A stretch of 64,000 bases of DNA from Nitrosopumilaceae archaeon (GCA_965208905.1 OZ242365.1:672001-736000); one strand, 5' to 3'. Positions 56,480 to 64,000 are shown, counted from the first letter of the stretch. Translations and numbers: made by a program. The notes: generated from the letters alone by a model not told the origin.

Positions 56480-57832
56480 TTATATAGATAAGAACACAGC
56501 CACAGATGCGCGCTTATCCCTTTTCTGACGACTTCGTTGTATGGAGTGGAGCATGGCGGGTGTTGGCTTGTAGCCCTCCTTGTGCCCCGGCCGTCTTAGG
56601 ACGACATTCCCCGCCGCCCGATACAGAATGTTCCAGGCGGCATTGACATCCGCGTGGAATACCCTGGTACAATTAGTGCAAATGAATTTGTCGCGTGATA
56701 TACGCGACTCTGAATCTACGTGATCACACACATGGCACGTCTGGCTCGTATATTTGGCCGATGCCCCCAACAGCGGTATGTTGTGTATCTCACACCACTG
56801 CGCAAGCTTGCGCAGGAACTCCCCAACACGGTTCTCCCGCATTGAACGGTTCATGGCGCGTTTGTAATTCCCGCCATGTGTGGTCATGTCTTTTACGGAG
56901 AACGACTCGACCACAATTGCGTCCACACCATTAGTTATCTGCGCAATCGTCTGATTTATCGTGTTCGCAGCTATGTTGTTGGCCTTCCTGTATAGCCGCC
57001 TTATTTGGTCATTCAATACACACCACTTCCGGCCATGCCGTACCTTGTGGTCACGAAGGTTCTTGAGCGCGTCAATCTCCCGCAGGATTGCTCTATGGCG
57101 TGTGTTGTGTATTGTAACATTGCCATTTGTGTCGACGGTAACTGCCAAGTGCTTGCAGCCCACATCGACACCACGCATTACACCAGTATTGCGGTGCGGC
57201 TCGACCGGGACGCGCACGGCGATATGCAGCTCAAACATGTGGTCTGACGGCTTTGTATGCTTGTCCACCCGTTTGGTGACATCAACTATCTTGAATGAGC
57301 GCATGTCCCATGATACAGCGATGGGCTTGGCGGTCTCTACAATACCATATCCGGGGATATGGATGGTGTGCTCACCTTTTCTTACCGGCGGATTTATACA
57401 GCTAAGTATGATGCGGCCGTCTTTGCGGCGGTACGGCGCGTGGTCTGAGTTGTCATCTATAACCCTTCTACATGCGACGGAGGCATCCTGTATGGCGCCC
57501 CTGCCAAACGATGCGGGGTACTCGCGCAGCCATGTATGTTTGGCGCGCCACCCCGTAAGCTGCTTGAACATGCCATACTTTAATGCCCTCTTTGACGGCC
57601 CAAAATCATATGTATGGTAGTCATCGTCCAACGTACCTGATGTAAAATCCAGCTTGCCCGGTAGTTTGAAGGGCTGCAGGATGTCCACTACCACCCTCCC
57701 CATATATTCACCACCAAACAAATACTCTGATACGGCGCGGTTGTACACATGTCTGGATACATGGCCCATACGGTGCACCCACTCTGCAAACAACACATCC
57801 CTTCGTAGCGGTACCTTGACTATCCGTATCAT
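56480..57832 (-). CDS. tnpB: TnpB RNA-guided endonuclease (second, divergent; no adjacent TnpA)
   Basis: RHVYN, RuvC GVDVG / IVVE / HADVNAAWNI, YTSQTCHVC..CTNC. Confidence 0.92.
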   Translation of the reverse strand: MIRIVKVPLRRDVLFAEWVHRMGHVSRHVYNRAVSEYLFGGEYMGRVVVDILQPFKLPGKLDFTSGTLDDDYHTYDFGPSKRALKYGMFKQLTGWRAKHTWLREYPASFGRGAIQDASVACRRVIDDNSDHAPYRRKDGRIILSCINPPVRKGEHTIHIPGYGIVETAKPIAVSWDMRSFKIVDVTKRVDKHTKPSDHMFELHIAVRVPVEPHRNTGVMRGVDVGCKHLAVTVDTNGNVTIHNTRHRAILREIDALKNLRDHKVRHGRKWCVLNDQIRRLYRKANNIAANTINQTIAQITNGVDAIVVESFSVKDMTTHGGNYKRAMNRSMRENRVGEFLRKLAQWCEIHNIPLLGASAKYTSQTCHVCDHVDSESRISRDKFICTNCTRVFHADVNAAWNILYRAAGNVVLRRPGHKEGYKPTPAMLHSIQRSRQKRDKRASVAVFLSI

Positions 57833-58219
57833 GATGTGTAATACGGTATACTGGTATTTAAGGAAGAATGTGGCGCATAGGCATGAAATCCATGGTGGTT
57901 TAGGCGTTAACCAAAACCTCCACAGGTGTGTTCTAATCTATATAATTCCCTTCTTTATCATGTATAGAATATCTTGCGCAGTCTTTATGCCGCATGTCAC
58001 ATCATGTGTAGTGGGCATATCTTCTATGCTGGGATATCTTGCTACTATCCATGATGAGATTATGTCCCATTCGTATTGTACACGTTTGATATCCCAGCCA
58101 TCAGGTACTGAATCTATTTTGACGAACTCGTCAGTATCTTGACGTGTATTTTTGTATGCGGTTGGAGTGGACCCCATAGAATGTTACTGTTTTCGGCATG
58201 ATTTTACATACATCTTCCA

Positions 58220-59077
58220 TCATTTATTTGTCATCTCCAACTGTTCGGCAAATTCTACTGGTGTCATGTATCCGATAGAGGAATGAATCCTCTCGGTGTT
58301 GTAATCTACAAAGGCCTTTGCAATGATCGTCTCTGCCTCCTGATAGTTCGCAAACTCGTGCGGCCAGATGTATTCCTTTTTCAGCGTCTTGTGAAATGAT
58401 TCGACATGTCCGTTCTGCTCCGGCGTATTCTTGTAGATGAATTCATGTTTGCCGATGCCAAGGGCCTGAACCGCATGTCTAAAGTCGCGGCTCGTATACT
58501 GGTTGCCGTTGTCCGTACGCAATCGTAATTGTGAGCAGTCAGGTTTCTCTGCGGCAACCGCGTTGGTGATTGAGGTGATTGCAATGTCTCGTGTGGCATT
58601 GACATCAAACGCGTAGGCGATCCACTTGCGCGTAAAGCAGTCAATTACGTTGAAGCAGTAGCACCAGCCGTCTATACCGCACCAGATGTATGTGATGTCC
58701 GTCTCCCACAACTGGTGTGGGGCTTTGGGTTTGAAGAGCTTTTGACCCGCTCGAATGATGTCGTTTTTGGTATTTTGTGGCTGGATGTAGCCCATTTTGC
58801 GATATATCCGCTGTATCTGCTTGCGGTTCACCACAATTCCCGTATCGCGCGTTATCTGGGCCGCCATGCGCCGTGTGCCGTACGTGGGCCTCTTTCTGCT
58901 CGTATCTAGCACAGTGCTCAATATATCCGGATTCAATCCCATGTCTCTGGGCTTGGGTTTGTAGTACCATTGGCGCCTGGATACGCCCGCATACCCTAGC
59001 GACTTGCGCAGGCTCAAATGTTGTTCCTGCATGATTTTTACCGCGTTCAATCGTTGCTTGCCTCCAAGGTTTTTTTT
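58220..59077 (-). CDS. IS3 transposase OrfB (rve/DDE), expressed via a -1 frameshift
   Basis: YGTRR, WETDITY, RTDNGNQY, PEQNGHVESFHKTLKKE, YNTERIHSSIGY; A8 slippery run at 59070-59077. Confidence 0.93.
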   Translation of the reverse strand, partial: KKNLGGKQRLNAVKIMQEQHLSLRKSLGYAGVSRRQWYYKPKPRDMGLNPDILSTVLDTSRKRPTYGTRRMAAQITRDTGIVVNRKQIQRIYRKMGYIQPQNTKNDIIRAGQKLFKPKAPHQLWETDITYIWCGIDGWCYCFNVIDCFTRKWIAYAFDVNATRDIAITSITNAVAAEKPDCSQLRLRTDNGNQYTSRDFRHAVQALGIGKHEFIYKNTPEQNGHVESFHKTLKKEYIWPHEFANYQEAETIIAKAFVDYNTERIHSSIGYMTPVEFAEQLEMTNK

Positions 59078-59337
59078 AAAGCGTCGTTTGCGATTGTCAG
59101 ATCCCCTATGATTCGCTTTAGGTCGCCGTTCTCCTTTTTGATGGCCTTTATCGGATCCTTCTTTCCGTGATGGGTCAGTCCGGACTTGCCTGCGTCCATG
59201 AACTTTTGCCGCCAGGCTTGAAACGTTTGGGGATGAACGTTGTGCTTGCGGCACAGCTCGGCCGTGCCAATATTGGTCTTGATTGATTCCAAAACGATCT
59301 GGATCTTTTGGTCTGGAGTAAACTTTGTTCTTACCAT
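59047..59337 (-). CDS. IS3 transposase OrfA (HTH)
   Basis: FTPDQKIQIV..ELCRKHNV..WR..ENGDLKRIIGDL..DALKK. Confidence 0.93.
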   Translation of the reverse strand: MVRTKFTPDQKIQIVLESIKTNIGTAELCRKHNVHPQTFQAWRQKFMDAGKSGLTHHGKKDPIKAIKKENGDLKRIIGDLTIANDALKKTLEASND

Positions 59338-59511
59338 GGCATCATCCCTCCCATTACGACTTTAAGCTGTATGAACGTGAGTGTTCTCATTCTAGCGGGG
59401 TCCCCACCACGGTGTGTGGCAGTTCATTACCATCCTGATCCATGACATAAGCGACACATGAACGCTTTCCTATATCGATTCCAATACATGTTTTAATTTT
59501 TGTTATATTTT

Positions 59512-59709
59512 TCACCTCCTTTTTTCACAATACTGGCAAGCAGGTGACTGCACTGATACATCAGAACTGCCCGCATTATCGCAGATAACCGGCGCCCACA
59601 AAAGTTGCAGCTAAATTCGCCCCATTCACTATTGAGGGCTCGAAGCCCATGTTTATGCAGGGGTCTGCCCACCATACGTGCCTTTAGATGATCTGACATT
59701 TACTTACTC
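59512..59709 (-). ncRNA. IS110 non-coding left end, candidate bridge RNA (copy 1)
   Basis: Collinear homologue of 63777-63971; lies directly upstream of the IS110 remnant. Confidence 0.65.
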
Positions 59710-59804
59710 TCACTAATGCACAACACATCTGTCGTACCATATACTCACATATACCAACATGTCCAGACACCACATATTACAGTGGCACAACTTCATCAAT
59801 CGTA

Positions 59805-60674
59805 CTATTTGTCATCGTCATCATCACCCAAAAAGATATCCATGCCAACTTCAGAAGCCTTCTGATATACGGCATCTAAGGCATCCATAAAGGACTCCTC
59901 ACTTCTCCAAAATGAAAGGCTGCCCAGTTGGCGAGGGAGGGATATGGACACTTCTGGTATGAATGCAGGGTGTGTCGGTACCATGCCATGTACACCTTTG
60001 CCCCAGAATGCATCCATGTCGACTGGAAGATCCTCATTCTTTGGAGCTTTCGGGGCCAGTATGGATACATCGGTATCGTGTTTAACATCTGAGAACGCAC
60101 TTACACCCATCATATCAAGTAAGTCCTTGGGGTCCATGCCCCTCACCCGCAGTATCAGAAGTGGTTCCAGATCAAAGCGCTCGGATACTATCAAATATAC
60201 CGCCGCTATATGTTTACAGGGATTGGCCCAGTCCCAGCAATTACAGTCAGTCTTTAGGTCATCGGGAAAGAGTGAAAGACCCACATCGCTAAAGACACTC
60301 TCCAGCTCTTCAGGCATCTGACCAGCCATCATCTTGGCGGCAATGACAGGTCTTGCCATCAACGAGTCTGCCACTTTCTTCCACTCGTCGGTACCCAGAC
60401 GTTTTACATTTATAGATACCTTGTACGGTTGGGACTCTGAGCCATACACGTCTCCATACACGCCACCCTTCTTCACATCTATTGACTCAACCTGGCCGCG
60501 GCGAGCGTATGAGCGAGCCCGGGCGAGTCGGCTATCATCTATTTTTTTATACAATATATCATTCCATCTCTTACCCCACCAGGTTCTAGCAGACTCACCG
60601 CGCTTTGACTGCAGTTTTATACCACCCTTGACCTTTTTGAGGCTACGAGATGTGTAATAATATCCGCCCCACAC
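59805..60674 (-). CDS. SWIM zinc-finger protein (SNF2 partner)
   Basis: WWGKRW, RL.RARSYARRGQV, CNCWDWANPCKHIAA, DLEPLLILRVRG. Confidence 0.92.
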   Translation of the reverse strand: MWGGYYYTSRSLKKVKGGIKLQSKRGESARTWWGKRWNDILYKKIDDSRLARARSYARRGQVESIDVKKGGVYGDVYGSESQPYKVSINVKRLGTDEWKKVADSLMARPVIAAKMMAGQMPEELESVFSDVGLSLFPDDLKTDCNCWDWANPCKHIAAVYLIVSERFDLEPLLILRVRGMDPKDLLDMMGVSAFSDVKHDTDVSILAPKAPKNEDLPVDMDAFWGKGVHGMVPTHPAFIPEVSISLPRQLGSLSFWRSEESFMDALDAVYQKASEVGMDIFLGDDDDDK

Positions 60675-63667
60675 TATGCCATCGCCTCCCGACTCAATGC
60701 TAGTACCTCGCGCAACTCTTCATTGGACATATTGGCAATCCATCCTTCACCAGTACCAACTACACTTCCGGCTATCTGTTTCTTTTGTTCGATCATTTTA
60801 TCTATCTTCTCTTCAAGCGTACCAATACACATCATCTTGCGCACCTGCACGTTTTTGGTCTGACCTATGCGAAAAGCCCGGTCAGTGGCCTGGTCTTCAA
60901 CGGCGGGGTTCCACCACCGATCAAAGTGGAACACATGATTGGCGGCAGTCAGATTCAGACCTGTTCCGCCAGCCTTTAGAGATACAACAAACACCTGTAT
61001 TGCATCATCACCACTAAAGCGTTCCACCATAATGTCACGCTGTCGCCGCGGCGTGCCCCCATGTAGGAATAACACCTCACGACCAAATGTCTCCTGAATG
61101 TGTTGCTTTATGATGTTGCCCATCTCCACAAATTGAGTGAATATCAGGGCCTTGTCGCCGGTCTCTATCACCTCCTCAAGCATCTGTATGAGTCTGTCCA
61201 GCTTACCAGAGCGTTTTGGTATTGCAGAGTTATCTCTTAGGAAGTGGGCCGGATGATTGCACACCTGTTTGAGTTTGATAAGCGCTCCTAGAATTGCACC
61301 CTTTCGCCCCATGCCCTCGGACTCCAATATGGCATTCTCTACATCCTGTAGCACGGAAGCATATAGTGTGGTCTGCTCCTTTGTCAGGGCGCAGTACTCT
61401 TTAATCTCAATCTTATCGGGCAGATCTGATATTACAGACTTGTCGGTCTTGAGTCTGCGCAGTATAAACGGACCGGTAGCCCGCCGGAGCCTATTGATTG
61501 CCTCCTCGCCTTGGCCAGCCTTTATGGGACGTATAAAGTTCTTTTGGAACTGTTCTAGTCCGCCCAAAAATCCCGCATTCAGAAACTCCATTATGGACCA
61601 CAAATCCGCCACGCCATTCTCGACCGGCGTGCCGGTCAGGGCAAACTTATAGTCTGCCGTAATGGAACGTATCACCTGTGCCTGTTTGGCGTATGGGTTC
61701 TTGATATTCTGAGCCTCATCAGCCACAATACCACTCCATTCCACACCTCGTATTGTGTCAACATCACGTCTTAGTGTGCCATAACTTGTAACAACTAGAG
61801 CATGGCTAGCAGCGTCCTTGGCAAATGTATCAGACTTTGTCCTAGAAGATCCATGATGTATCATGACCGGCATGTTGGGCGTGAAACGAGCAGCCTCCCG
61901 TTTCCAGTTATTAATTACGGATGTGGGACATACCAACAAGGCCGGCCTACCCTCTCTTCCCTCCACATCCCGTTGTATCATGGTCAGTGTCTGAACCGTC
62001 TTTCCCAGGCCCATGTCATCTGCCAGGCATCCGCCCAATCCCAAATCTCGCAGGAATGACAGCCATGCATACCCCCGTCGCTGATATGGCCGGAGCTCTC
62101 CAGTAAAGTGTTTGGGCAGATTTGGTTCTTGTATGGTTGCCTGTCCATTCAATCTTTCTATTATATCAGTAATTGTATCTGCGGATGATACCCCGCCCCA
62201 CTCCAGATCCGCAGGCATATCGCCCATTCCCAGATCCATTTTAATCATGTCTTGCAGAGATCTTTTGTTACCACCCTTCTTTAACAAGCGTATGGCAGAG
62301 CGTATCTCTTTGTGACTCACCACAGCCCATTGACCCCGCATTCTCACAAGTGGTGACTTTAGTGCAGCCATCGCCTCCAATTCCTCGATAGACATAGTCT
62401 GATCCCCCAGTGCCACTTCCCAGTCAAATTGCATCACACTGTCCAATGTCAACATGCCCGAACTTTGATTGGTGGCGCGCTGCATATTGGCCCTGGCGGT
62501 CAGCCGCCGGGTCTTATCACGTCCCATCCACCACGCGGGAAGTATAACTCCATATCCTGCCTTACTGAGGGCCTCGGCATCACGGGTCAAAAATTGGTAG
62601 GCGCCACCTGCGCTGGTCGTATACCCCACAGGCCCATCCTTTGTTATTCCATTTGATATGTCCGGGCAGATGCTGGCAGCCTGTCCCAAGGCAAGCAGTA
62701 TGTGGCCTCGTATATCCGACTCTTTAGAGTTCCATACTGTGTCGGCGGGCACCAGTAGGCTGGGGTCATCGTTGGGTTGCACCAAATATCGCACAGTCCA
62801 TTTACCGTGATCTTTGTCGGGTTCTTCAATACGAAAGCATATTCGAAAGGACGAGCCTGCCATTACGCCTATAGGTGCCTGCCATTCGCGTATCTGGCCC
62901 ACCAGAGTCTGTACTCCCTCGGCAGTACCGGATATCGTGTTGTTGTTGGAGCGCAGCGAATGCAGCCACGCATCATGGTCACTGTCAAAGCGGGCACGGT
63001 GACGTCGATAACTCTTAGAGTCCGAGTGTACTGTGCGTACCAGATAATCAGTCATGTTCGATATTACATTCCACAACACTGTGACCGCGGGCTGAAAGAT
63101 AGTTTCCTTGTCTTCGCCCCATGTCAGGGCGCGCCCCGATGCGGGCATTTTGGCAGCGGCCACATCCATCCATTCGGCATCCTCACCCACAAATGCAGGA
63201 TTCCATACCCCCTTATACTTTTCATCAAAATGGGGTATGGCATCGGGCAGATACTGCTGTCTTGCAACCATTGAGATGGCCTGCCGTAATATGTGTGTCC
63301 ACCACGCCATATCTTCACCCACTATAACGCCATCTTTCAGAGTTCTCTTGCCATATGCCGTGCTCAATATCGCTATACTTTCGGCCATAGAGAGGCTTAG
63401 AGTTGCAACCTTCCAGGGAGCAATACGTTTTGGTGTCGCGCTCATTTCACCAAGCATGCCACTAGAAGGTACCGGGGCATCATCCGCGGTGGGAAGCCAT
63501 GCCACTGCCACTGCATCCTTACTCTTCTTTAGTATTGGAGATGTCTCCCGGAGCTCGTCAGTGGTAGCCGACAAAGGATGTTTGCCTTTTTTGGCTTTCG
63601 AGTCTTTGGATTTTTCAGCCCAGAGTACAAGCGAGTCCAGTATATTGGCCATATGTAGTATTAACAT
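60674..63667 (-). CDS. SNF2-family helicase/translocase with a DUF3670-like N-terminal region
   Basis: LRPYQ, LADDMGLGKT, DEAQNIKN, LTGTPVEN, LKQVCNHP, SGK, DRWWNPAVEDQATDRAFRIGQ. Confidence 0.96.
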   Translation of the reverse strand: MLILHMANILDSLVLWAEKSKDSKAKKGKHPLSATTDELRETSPILKKSKDAVAVAWLPTADDAPVPSSGMLGEMSATPKRIAPWKVATLSLSMAESIAILSTAYGKRTLKDGVIVGEDMAWWTHILRQAISMVARQQYLPDAIPHFDEKYKGVWNPAFVGEDAEWMDVAAAKMPASGRALTWGEDKETIFQPAVTVLWNVISNMTDYLVRTVHSDSKSYRRHRARFDSDHDAWLHSLRSNNNTISGTAEGVQTLVGQIREWQAPIGVMAGSSFRICFRIEEPDKDHGKWTVRYLVQPNDDPSLLVPADTVWNSKESDIRGHILLALGQAASICPDISNGITKDGPVGYTTSAGGAYQFLTRDAEALSKAGYGVILPAWWMGRDKTRRLTARANMQRATNQSSGMLTLDSVMQFDWEVALGDQTMSIEELEAMAALKSPLVRMRGQWAVVSHKEIRSAIRLLKKGGNKRSLQDMIKMDLGMGDMPADLEWGGVSSADTITDIIERLNGQATIQEPNLPKHFTGELRPYQRRGYAWLSFLRDLGLGGCLADDMGLGKTVQTLTMIQRDVEGREGRPALLVCPTSVINNWKREAARFTPNMPVMIHHGSSRTKSDTFAKDAASHALVVTSYGTLRRDVDTIRGVEWSGIVADEAQNIKNPYAKQAQVIRSITADYKFALTGTPVENGVADLWSIMEFLNAGFLGGLEQFQKNFIRPIKAGQGEEAINRLRRATGPFILRRLKTDKSVISDLPDKIEIKEYCALTKEQTTLYASVLQDVENAILESEGMGRKGAILGALIKLKQVCNHPAHFLRDNSAIPKRSGKLDRLIQMLEEVIETGDKALIFTQFVEMGNIIKQHIQETFGREVLFLHGGTPRRQRDIMVERFSGDDAIQVFVVSLKAGGTGLNLTAANHVFHFDRWWNPAVEDQATDRAFRIGQTKNVQVRKMMCIGTLEEKIDKMIEQKKQIAGSVVGTGEGWIANMSNEELREVLALSREAMA

Positions 63668-63776
63668 GTTATGAGATCACACATGTATGATATTTCAAAG
63701 TATCTTTTAATGGACCTGTTCAATCTTCAACTGATCCTCCAAATCACTCAAAAATACCAAAAAACAATCGTACTTG

Positions 63777-64000
63777 AAAGTAAATGTTAGTCCATCCAAA
63801 GACACGTATGTCGGGCAGACCTCTTACTGACAATTGACTTCGAGTCCTCGTACTTGAATGGGGCGAATTGAGCTGCGACTTTTGTGGGCGTCGGTTATCC
63901 GAGAGGATGCAGGCAGCTCTTATGTATCATTGCAGTCGCCTGCTTGCCGGTACTGTGAAAAAAGGAGGTGAGTGTGTACCTCTAATGCTCACAAGCACAT
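63777..64000 (+). ncRNA. IS110 non-coding left end, candidate bridge RNA (copy 2); the element continues beyond the window
   Basis: Homologous to the reverse complement of 59512-59709; ends in AAAAAGGAGGTGA followed by GTG TGT ACC TCT AAT GCT CAC AAG CAC. Confidence 0.62.

Follow-up and report, generated by a model that had tools for sequence, protein, structure and literature searches.

Recombination directed by bridge RNAs or seekRNAs has so far been worked out in bacterial insertion sequences (ISs) of the IS110 family, and two arrangements of the guide RNA serve as points of reference. In IS621, as set out in two reports (PMC11208158, PMC11208160), the target loop comprises a stem, a left guide (nt 50-58), a stem-loop, a right guide (nt 77-80) and handshake bases; left guides pair with the bottom strand and right guides with the top strand. 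In the main text on seekRNAs (PMC11187229), the top-strand match of ISEc21 (IS110 type) lies 3' of the bottom-strand match, whereas it lies 5' in four seekRNAs of the IS1111 type; the same text mentions IS1111 members whose non-coding region is upstream (ISMtsp17) or long on both sides (ISHvo10, ISAcp5). Archaeal recombinases of the family are numerous, with 662 counted by Vaysset et al., and the Evo-PIN preprint (10.64898/2026.10.21.760802) predicts 32,190 bridge RNAs with 86 models. Here we describe two stretches of a 64-kb segment (G000:C1:672001-736000, hereafter the window) from the genome of a Nitrosopumilaceae archaeon, which is a single contig of 2.21 Mb with a G+C content of 45.6%. 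We consider it very probable that both are left ends (LEs) of IS110-family elements, each encoding a guide RNA of the bridge/seek type. Related genomes and loci are labelled Gnnn and Lnnn, and copies 1-5 denote LEs within the source genome, G000.

The two stretches, 63777-63971 on the plus strand (copy 2) and 59512-59705 on the minus strand (copy 1; genome 731512-731705), align at 81% identity across 194 nt. Elsewhere in the genome lies a third copy, whose LE shares 72% identity with that of copy 2. The 3' end common to all three reads GGAGGTG, in agreement with an original prediction, made from the window alone, that copies 1 and 2 are collinear homologues ending in the same Shine-Dalgarno sequence. 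Each of the two carries an internal segment resembling its own flank, as had also been predicted. The 11-nt TCGTACTTGAA occurs exactly twice in the window, once across the left junction of copy 2 (63768-63778) and once within its LE (63848-63858), against a chance expectation of about 0.01 occurrences and with two or more occurrences in 0 of 100 shuffles. Here the guide GTACT+TG+AA faces a flank reading GTACT+TG and an LE starting AA, and the match extends over two more bases to give 11/11. On the minus strand of copy 1, CAATAGTGA (59626-59634) agrees with the flank CATTAGTGA (59710-59718) at 8 of 9 positions, the guide AATAG+TG standing against ATTAG+TG. In the hairpin beside these segments, GGGCTTCGAGCCC of copy 1 corresponds to TGACTTCGAGTCC of copy 2, a change from G-C to A-U that keeps the pairing; among 39 relatives, five different base-pair types occupy this position (alignment columns 33-62), and the two most variable segments of the LE alignment adjoin the hairpin. 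The compensatory change and the divergent flanking segments of the original prediction are thus both borne out. Because the start of the copy 2 LE carries a 4-nt deletion (AAAG[CGAG]TAAAT), the spacing from the flank match to the conserved GTAAAT varies between the copies. The features of copy 2, all on the plus strand, are as follows.

63768-63776, plus: left target (TCGTACT) and TG core, directly upstream of the element, identical in sequence to 63848-63856 of the target-loop 3' strand
63777-63972, plus: solo LE of an IS110-family element; homology ends after the Shine-Dalgarno-like GGAGGTGAG
63808-63951, plus: candidate bridge-RNA-like gene, with outer stem P1 enclosing target and donor arms (covariance model R1, 75.4 bits, E 9.7e-19)
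63824-63834, plus: 5' strand of the target loop (right-target guide, degenerate, with AA against CA in relatives)
63835-63847, plus: target-arm hairpin P3 (TGACTTCGAGTCC)
63848-63858, plus: 3' strand of the target loop, made up of left-target guide, TG and AA
63878-63882, plus: 5' strand of the donor loop, ACTTT, the reverse complement of LE bases 1-5 (AAAGT)
63920-63930, plus: 3' strand of the donor loop (TTATGTATCAT), with TC in place of the TG core of relatives

Those of copy 1, all on the minus strand, include the remains of a recombinase gene and the element that interrupts it.

59711-59718, minus: left target (CATTAG) and TG core; the guide AATAG+TG fits at 4/5 bases plus the core
59516-59710, minus: LE, from homology to other copies
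59532-59675, minus: candidate bridge-RNA-like gene (R1, 89.9 bits, E 4.9e-23)
59649-59659, minus: right-target guide
59636-59648, minus: target-arm hairpin
59625-59635, minus: left-target guide
59601-59605, minus: 5' strand of the donor loop
59553-59563, minus: 3' strand of the donor loop
59410-59515, minus: recombinase remnant, first 35 codons, with a GTG start and the catalytic-Asp motif IGIDIGK
58163-59409, minus: IS3-family element (orfA/orfB; Pfam HTH_Tnp_1 and rve/rve_3) interrupting the remnant, with CGGT on both sides
58142-58162, minus: recombinase frame resumed past the IS3-family insertion (TAYKNTR, compared as an open reading frame (ORF) with HTKYKNTR of copy 3)

The wider evidence comes from relatives. 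With the copy 3 protein as query, relatives were found in 56 of 401 genomes of the same archaeal family, a tally that takes in one unpublished genome, G227; a genome-contig search with the same protein gave only two loci, and a named relative is a Nitrosopumilaceae metagenome-assembled genome (MAG). Relatives from one archaeal family, with a named one in Nitrosopumilaceae, uphold the archaeal origin that had been proposed. A further 40 copies were taken from multi-copy genomes, all loci were oriented, and element ends were set by copy-to-copy alignment. The upstream segments (71, of which 60 were distinct) were reduced to 55 aligned LEs by a motif filter that removed five (G0c4, L007, L034, L050 and L075); G0c4 is copy 4, later a true match of the covariance model. 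In this alignment, two hypervariable strands surround a hairpin and two further ones lie in a second arm.

The junctions of these elements follow the pattern (left flank)-TG-[AA...element...A/G]-TG-(right flank), with TG at 45 of 55 left junctions and 44 of 48 right junctions. Site-specific insertion with a short core at both junctions, without long terminal inverted repeats at the very tips, is what is expected of the IS110 family. The (T)GA core first suggested does not stand, since the AA that follows TG belongs to the element as its first two bases; a (T)GA or AT core is ruled out by multi-copy junctions, which carry TG on both sides.

The 3' strand of the target loop corresponds to the left flank, the TG core and the first two bases of the LE. 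In a fixed-register test on 46 of the 55 elements (nine, copy 2 among them, were dropped as their alignment anchors did not end in TG or AG), left-guide positions -1 to -4 match the flank in 43, 44, 43 and 40 insertions, where the background is 0.21-0.45; agreement falls to 28 insertions at position -5 and to background at positions -6 and -7. Over 31 distinct guides, the mean is 4.26 of 5 matches against 1.43 when guides are permuted among elements, a value reached in none of 20,000 permutations, the number used throughout. A register-free sliding test on all 55 insertions agrees (6.76 against 5.14; 0/20,000). In 38 of 46 cases, the dinucleotide that follows TG in the guide is also the one with which the element opens; it is mostly AA, and the GA and AC cases track the element.

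The 5' strand of the target loop corresponds to the reverse complement of A/G, TG and the right flank. For the right side, a donor-guide match of 6/7 or better was required, which left 50 elements with 48 distinct right flanks; in these, right-guide positions +1 to +6 match in 38, 35, 36, 31, 28 and 24 (background about 0.25); the mean is 3.91 of 6 against 1.62 permuted (0/20,000). Of 55 guides, 40 have CA as the complement of the core; another 12 have UA or CG, which would still pair with TG by wobble. Guide and flank covary on both sides in the further copies whose collection had been proposed as a check.

The second loop matches the two ends of the element itself. Its 3' strand equals the last five bases of the right end plus TG at 7/7 positions in 38 of 52 elements scanned, a relation given as a count only; its covarying variants include ATGGATG, ATAGGAG, ATGAGTG and ACAGATG. 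Right ends located by this loop agree within -2 to +7 nt with copy-to-copy BLAST ends at 24 of 32 loci, and the remaining loci are duplicated or truncated. The first five nucleotides of the 5' strand are the reverse complement of LE bases 1-5 (mean 3.88 of 5 against 2.74 permuted; 0/20,000), as in the pairs GCCTT/AAGGC, GCTTC/GAAGC, GCTTT/AAAGC and GTGTT/AACAC. Loop strands that covary with both halves of the target, one for each DNA strand and overlapping at the core, together with a second loop that matches both element ends, are the properties by which bridge RNAs and seekRNAs are recognised.

The elements at L036 and L044 illustrate how such guides may be redirected in nature. They are 97.3% identical over 1,682 bp, yet the two target guides account for 9 of the 46 differences between them, and the flanks differ correspondingly (AATTG|TG..TG|CAAC against CTAC|TG..TG|GAAGG). 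This pair bears on a reading in which the structured region would be a 5' untranslated region regulating translation of the recombinase, with flank identity arising from a preference of the protein or from mis-set boundaries. The position of the region lends something to that idea, as some 15-25 nt separate the 3' strand of P1 from the Shine-Dalgarno-like GGAGGTG that follows it, with no terminator-like T run in this interval. However, a site set by the protein would not covary with two loop strands between elements of 97.3% identity, nor would it give right-flank complementarity and left-flank identity in register with a shared TG, and the boundaries were set independently by multi-copy alignments; we regard this explanation as very improbable. 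Covariation in relatives instead gives strong support to the proposal of naturally reprogrammed bridge/seek guides in the non-coding left ends of IS110 elements. From this covariation, and from homology to experimentally studied elements, we infer RNA guidance in the archaeal elements. By analogy with IS621 and ISEc11/ISEc21, the RNA would direct the recombinase to insert the element, in circular form, at a 13-bp site of the form N5-TG-N6. All four relations between guide and DNA, and natural reprogramming, can be seen by sequence alone in mesophilic ammonia-oxidising archaea. The system would be compact, with a recombinase of about 350 aa, a predicted RNA of about 125-145 nt and the N5-TG-N6 site.

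A common fold is predicted for the candidate RNA gene, which measures about 144-145 nt and lies 15-60 nt upstream of the recombinase start codon in all 55 aligned elements. Two arms lie within the outer stem P1, one for the target (P2, P3) and one for the donor (P4, P5), each consisting of a closing stem, an internal loop and a hairpin. The structural alignment held 39 of 43 distinct segments, the near-duplicates L051, L057, L060 and L073 being excluded, and RNAalifold alone yields the same five helices. All five carry compensatory changes; 93.7% of cells are paired, against 34-52% when the partners are slid, 18 of 27 pairs are altered on both sides, and 0 of 500 shuffles reach any of five measures. 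Our own tally of the pair tables gives about 68 G-U and 15 A-C pairs, and since G-U pairs outnumber A-C pairs the recombinase-sense strand is favoured. That bias has a bearing on whether the guides might act as single-stranded DNA, in the way that sub-terminal hairpins and guide bases of IS200/IS605 elements pair with their target. The evidence throughout is covariation of DNA sequence, which does not separate RNA from DNA. Nevertheless, the G-U bias fits a recombinase-sense transcript, a target loop and a donor loop are both present as in bridge RNAs, and the enzyme is of the IS110-family DEDD/Ser kind, for which RNA guides have been shown by experiment. There is accordingly little to recommend a DNA guide, whose probability we put as very low.

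An A/T-rich octamer, as read from the alignment, stands at about +7 to +14 of the LE in all sub-clades (AGTAAATT, AGTATATC, ATGATAAC, ATGTAAAC). In the window it occupies 63783-63790 and 59697-59704. About 25 nt lie between it and the start of P1 downstream, a spacing that would suit an archaeal TATA box placed inside the LE and serving the RNA gene; in one sub-clade the octamer is also part of a sub-terminal inverted repeat. Other variations of the LE were seen here and there. At L055 and L057 (G006) the LE is without its first eight bases (AACACATG) and the element begins at a second TG, L019/L058 (G286) have a 17-nt G-rich insertion directly after the closing stem of the target arm, and at L025, L069 and L071 the target-arm hairpin is extended by 20-30 nt.

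A covariance model built from the relatives finds five matches in the whole 2.2-Mb source genome, every one an LE; four are strong and one is weak.

Copy 4: 110.9 bits; recombinase frameshifted near residue 244
Copy 3: 94.7 bits; recombinase full-length
Copy 1: 89.9 bits; about 43 codons of the recombinase remain
Copy 2: 75.4 bits; solo LE
Copy 5: 22.3 bits; partial LE stub

The same model matches in 20 of 151 sampled genomes of the class (15 of 80 from the same family, 4 of 70 from other families), a tally that includes one unpublished genome, G077; beyond the two tallies, nothing here draws on G227 or G077. The best haloarchaeal relative of the recombinase, on a Halobellus plasmid (34% identity), gave no match to the RNA model, and the reach of the model is therefore limited to the class Nitrososphaeria as sampled.

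Copy 3 (genome 1781624 to 1779942; 1,683 bp plus TG) identifies the enzyme. Its recombinase of 350 residues matches the NCBIfam entry NF033542, 'IS110 family RNA-guided transposase', at 210.4 bits (cut-off 140), as well as Pfam PF01548 (83.5 bits) and PF02371 (72.8 bits). It carries the motifs GIDIGK, CEST, KTDKLD and QSG (D, E, D..D and SG), and it has the DEDD (RuvC-like) N-terminal domain and the Transposase_20 C-terminal domain with SG that characterise the IS110 family. At copy 3 (L003, about 1491-1489), ATA stands where relatives have their ATG start, and there is no in-frame ATG, GTG or TTG after the upstream stop. An element of G065 with at least 20 copies (L036 and relatives) has the same ATA at the start-codon position. 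As this multi-copy element carries it too, the ATA need not inactivate copy 3, and we dropped the idea that it is an inactivating mutation; it may be a non-canonical start or a means of holding recombinase levels low.

Placed beside IS621, the archaeal elements share an RNA in the left end upstream of a DEDD/Ser recombinase, two internal loops devoted to the target and to the element's own ends, a dinucleotide core common to all guides, and handshake-like bases after a guide. They differ in strand order, as in IS621 left guides are 5' (nt 50-58 and 123-130) and right guides 3', whereas in the archaeal elements the right guides are 5' and the left guides 3'. They differ also in the core (CT in IS621, TG here), in an outer stem that encloses both arms, in guides of about 5+2 and 6+2 nt, in a donor 5' strand that lies off the core, in their archaeal host, and in a protein that is distantly related (PDB 8wt6, E 1.3e-11). 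The original prediction that the flank-matching guide lies 3' of the hairpin, unlike in IS621, is confirmed, and the order is that of IS1111-type seekRNAs. Indeed, in the main text of the seekRNA study (PMC11187229), ISEc11, ISPa11 and ISKpn4 likewise have the top-strand match 5' of the bottom-strand match. A further likeness to IS1111 elements is an archaeal recombinase of about 350-365 aa with a G[LM]xPxxxxSG motif, and sub-terminal inverted repeats of 10-26 bp in one archaeal sub-clade may be another. Of 28 distinct elements, 17 have sub-terminal inverted repeats that set in 3-12 nt from the tips and comprise 9-24 matched bases; in the sub-clade of the window copies the terminal inverted repeat measures 4-6 bp only, against about 7-17 bp for the IS1111 trait. 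The archaeal RNA lies upstream of the recombinase gene, whereas the IS1111 RNA, according to the same main text, lies downstream. Protein similarity does not settle whether the elements belong to the IS110 or the IS1111 group: with two named IS1111-group references compared, IS4321/IS5075-family transposases show 19.2-19.9% identity over 95% of the length (E 2e-5 to 8e-5), and PDB chains of ISCro4 and IS621 are equally weak matches (E about 1e-11).

ISMtsp17, ISHvo10 and ISAcp5 likewise depart from the rule that IS1111 elements have a downstream non-coding region, and ISHvo10 is haloarchaeal; the main text of PMC11187229 gives no RNA, guides or targets for them. In that text ISEc21 shares the upstream non-coding region, and its relative ISMch6 has been naturally redirected by few guide changes. 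The literature searched, so far as its main texts go, contained no Nitrosopumilaceae elements and no left-end RNA with such a strand order, which the supplements of Durrant, Siddiquee and Evo-PIN may hold. As predicted here, then, the archaeal layout combines the strand order of IS1111 with the upstream RNA position of the IS110 type. Viewed from the other strand, the RNA would have exactly the plan of IS621, including two handshake bases after the top-strand guide, and the difference from IS621 would then lie in the strand and the side of the element's genes relative to the recombination site. We tentatively suggest, at somewhat less than even chances, that the Nitrososphaeria clade represents a third configuration of the IS110 family, with a bridge RNA encoded in the LE, guide strands ordered as in IS1111, TG for a core, and one outer stem around both arms. 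The archaeal elements show that the order of the strands and the position of the RNA gene can be combined otherwise than in the two textbook types, and they bear on how that gene shifted between element ends in the history of the family.

If such a configuration is real, the DNA encoding the left guide (left target, TG and AA) is also a built-in copy of the left junction and could be used as a false excision site. False excision there would explain the stub at genome 1703697-1703778. This stub, copy 5 (G000:C1:1703697-1703778, plus strand), opens with a left junction of the usual kind (CTAGAG|TG) and retains the LE from base 1 to about base 82; it ends exactly at the TG of its own left-guide sequence, and continues with GAAACAGG, the right target predicted from its right guide (GAAACAAA). 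It looks like an excision scar in which guide-encoding DNA was used as a false left junction.

The two copies in the window are relics and are most likely inert. They are called relics because copy 2 is without a recombinase and copy 1 retains only some 43 codons, and inertness is most likely since neither has a right end; when the right ends of copies 3 and 4 were compared with the genome by BLAST, no orphan right end suited to either was detected. In copy 1 the GTG-started frame reads MKNITKIKTCIGIDIGK..., the N-terminus of an IS110-type recombinase, although the remnant is too short for a Pfam match. The figure of about 43 codons comes from the 35 codons plus TAYKNTR, after which recombinase similarity stops. 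The order of events was loss of the recombinase after about 43 codons, followed by the IS3-family insertion. This latter element, in which HTH_Tnp_1 marks orfA and rve/rve_3 marks orfB, looks complete (orfA 59047-59337 and orfB 58220-59254, both minus), with imperfect terminal repeats. The donor-loop 5' strand ACTTT agrees with both LE starts, at 5/5 with AAAGT (copy 2) and at 4/5 with AGAGT (copy 1).

The GID-containing IS110 ORF that was to be looked for after copy 2, and whose lack the original prediction had set down as a refutation, is absent: no recombinase ORF was found downstream, past the end of the window too, and a Peptidase_S8 ORF starts about 35 nt beyond that end instead. In the sister genome G083 (G083:C1:1278972), the S8 gene region is 97% identical from 14 nt past the last homologous base of copy 2, a right-edge comparison that spans 63972-64000 of the window and 1696-1709 of L001. 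The neighbour upstream of the S8 gene is a different one in G083, and the SNF2 helicase gene that lies to the left of copy 2 is 1.25 Mb away. As the S8 and SNF2 sides are thus separated, copy 2 marks the site of a rearrangement breakpoint. G083 also holds a complete element of the sub-type to which copies 1 and 2 belong, interrupted by 7 kb of inserted DNA with an 8-bp duplication; its left flank matches the guide at 6/6 positions and its right flank at 4/8 (the first three bases and the eighth).

Solo and truncated LEs of this kind might instead be non-autonomous or domesticated guide-RNA genes, either mobilised in trans in the manner of miniature inverted-repeat transposable elements or kept as orphan bridge RNAs that the recombinase of copy 3 or 4 would load to drive rearrangements of the host genome. 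It is in keeping with this that copy 2 and several LEs in related genomes are without a recombinase gene, that G018 has three matches to the RNA model and no recombinase match at E <= 1e-20, that copy 2 sits exactly at a synteny breakpoint, and that copies 1 and 2 still score 89.9 and 75.4 bits by the structural model. The solo copies nevertheless have no right end, and their truncation points differ (about 43 codons into the recombinase in copy 1, the start codon in copy 2, about 75 codons in L090 of G018 and a point inside P1 in L092). Moreover, they occur singly and show no amplification, the genome offers no right end to suit their donor loops, copy 2 has degenerate positions, and the 'solo' LE of G083 is the element split by the 7-kb insertion. 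Retained guide-RNA genes are for these reasons unlikely, though less so than the regulatory-leader and DNA-guide explanations above. A related reading, that solo LEs are mini-elements using the Shine-Dalgarno sequence as a false right end, was rejected: the flanks after copy 2 and after the G083 LE misfit the right guides, and at the G083 locus an ordinary insertion of 7 kb, with its 8-bp duplication, accounts for the arrangement. The two loci are ordinary debris in a small IS graveyard, marking a rearrangement breakpoint.

Several observations weigh against the identification of these LEs as guide-RNA genes. The right-flank matches are weaker than the left-flank ones, copy 4 (right target GTTTTT against a predicted GAAACA), L056 and L061 fit poorly, the donor-loop 5' strand does not reach the core, and the elements are kin, so that the permutation counts overstate their independence. 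Copies 1 and 2 themselves depart from the pattern, with donor-loop 3' strands that read ..GTA-TC.. against ..AGG-TG.. in other elements and match no right end in the genome; the right guide of copy 2 has AA for CA and its first hairpin pair is broken, and without right ends neither copy offers a right-guide comparison. Among the families of Rfam 15, three loci (9,545 bases) matched none at E <= 1. Single-sequence folds of copies 1 and 2 were no better than shuffles (z -0.91 and +0.45), and the minimum-energy fold of copy 2 differs from the consensus. Folding on both strands never gave a z beyond -0.91, and we take this as evidence neither way. With no Rfam match and such folds, support for the structure is comparative only.

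A locus filed under a bacterium resembles copy 4. L005 (VXML01000086.1, labelled as a Gemmatimonadetes MAG) has the flank and left end of copy 4 (..TTTGGCTAAGAGTG|AAAGCGAG..) and a recombinase N-terminus 85% identical to that of copy 3; the contig probably comes from an archaeon and was placed in a bacterial bin.

The neighbourhood of the two copies contains further genes. A TnpB-like ORF of 450 aa (56480-57832, minus; Pfam OrfB_IS605 and a Cas12f1-like TNB domain) adjoins the IS debris. Between it and the IS3-family element lies a 79-aa ORF (57938-58177) with no Pfam match, the start of which continues the broken recombinase frame. The interval 59805-63667 (minus) encodes a 997-aa SNF2-family helicase (SNF2-rel_dom, DUF3670, Helicase_C) and then a 289-aa ORF with no Pfam match at E <= 0.001. 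This last ORF carries a CxC...CxH motif (CNCWDWANPCKH), which we take to resemble a SWIM zinc finger.

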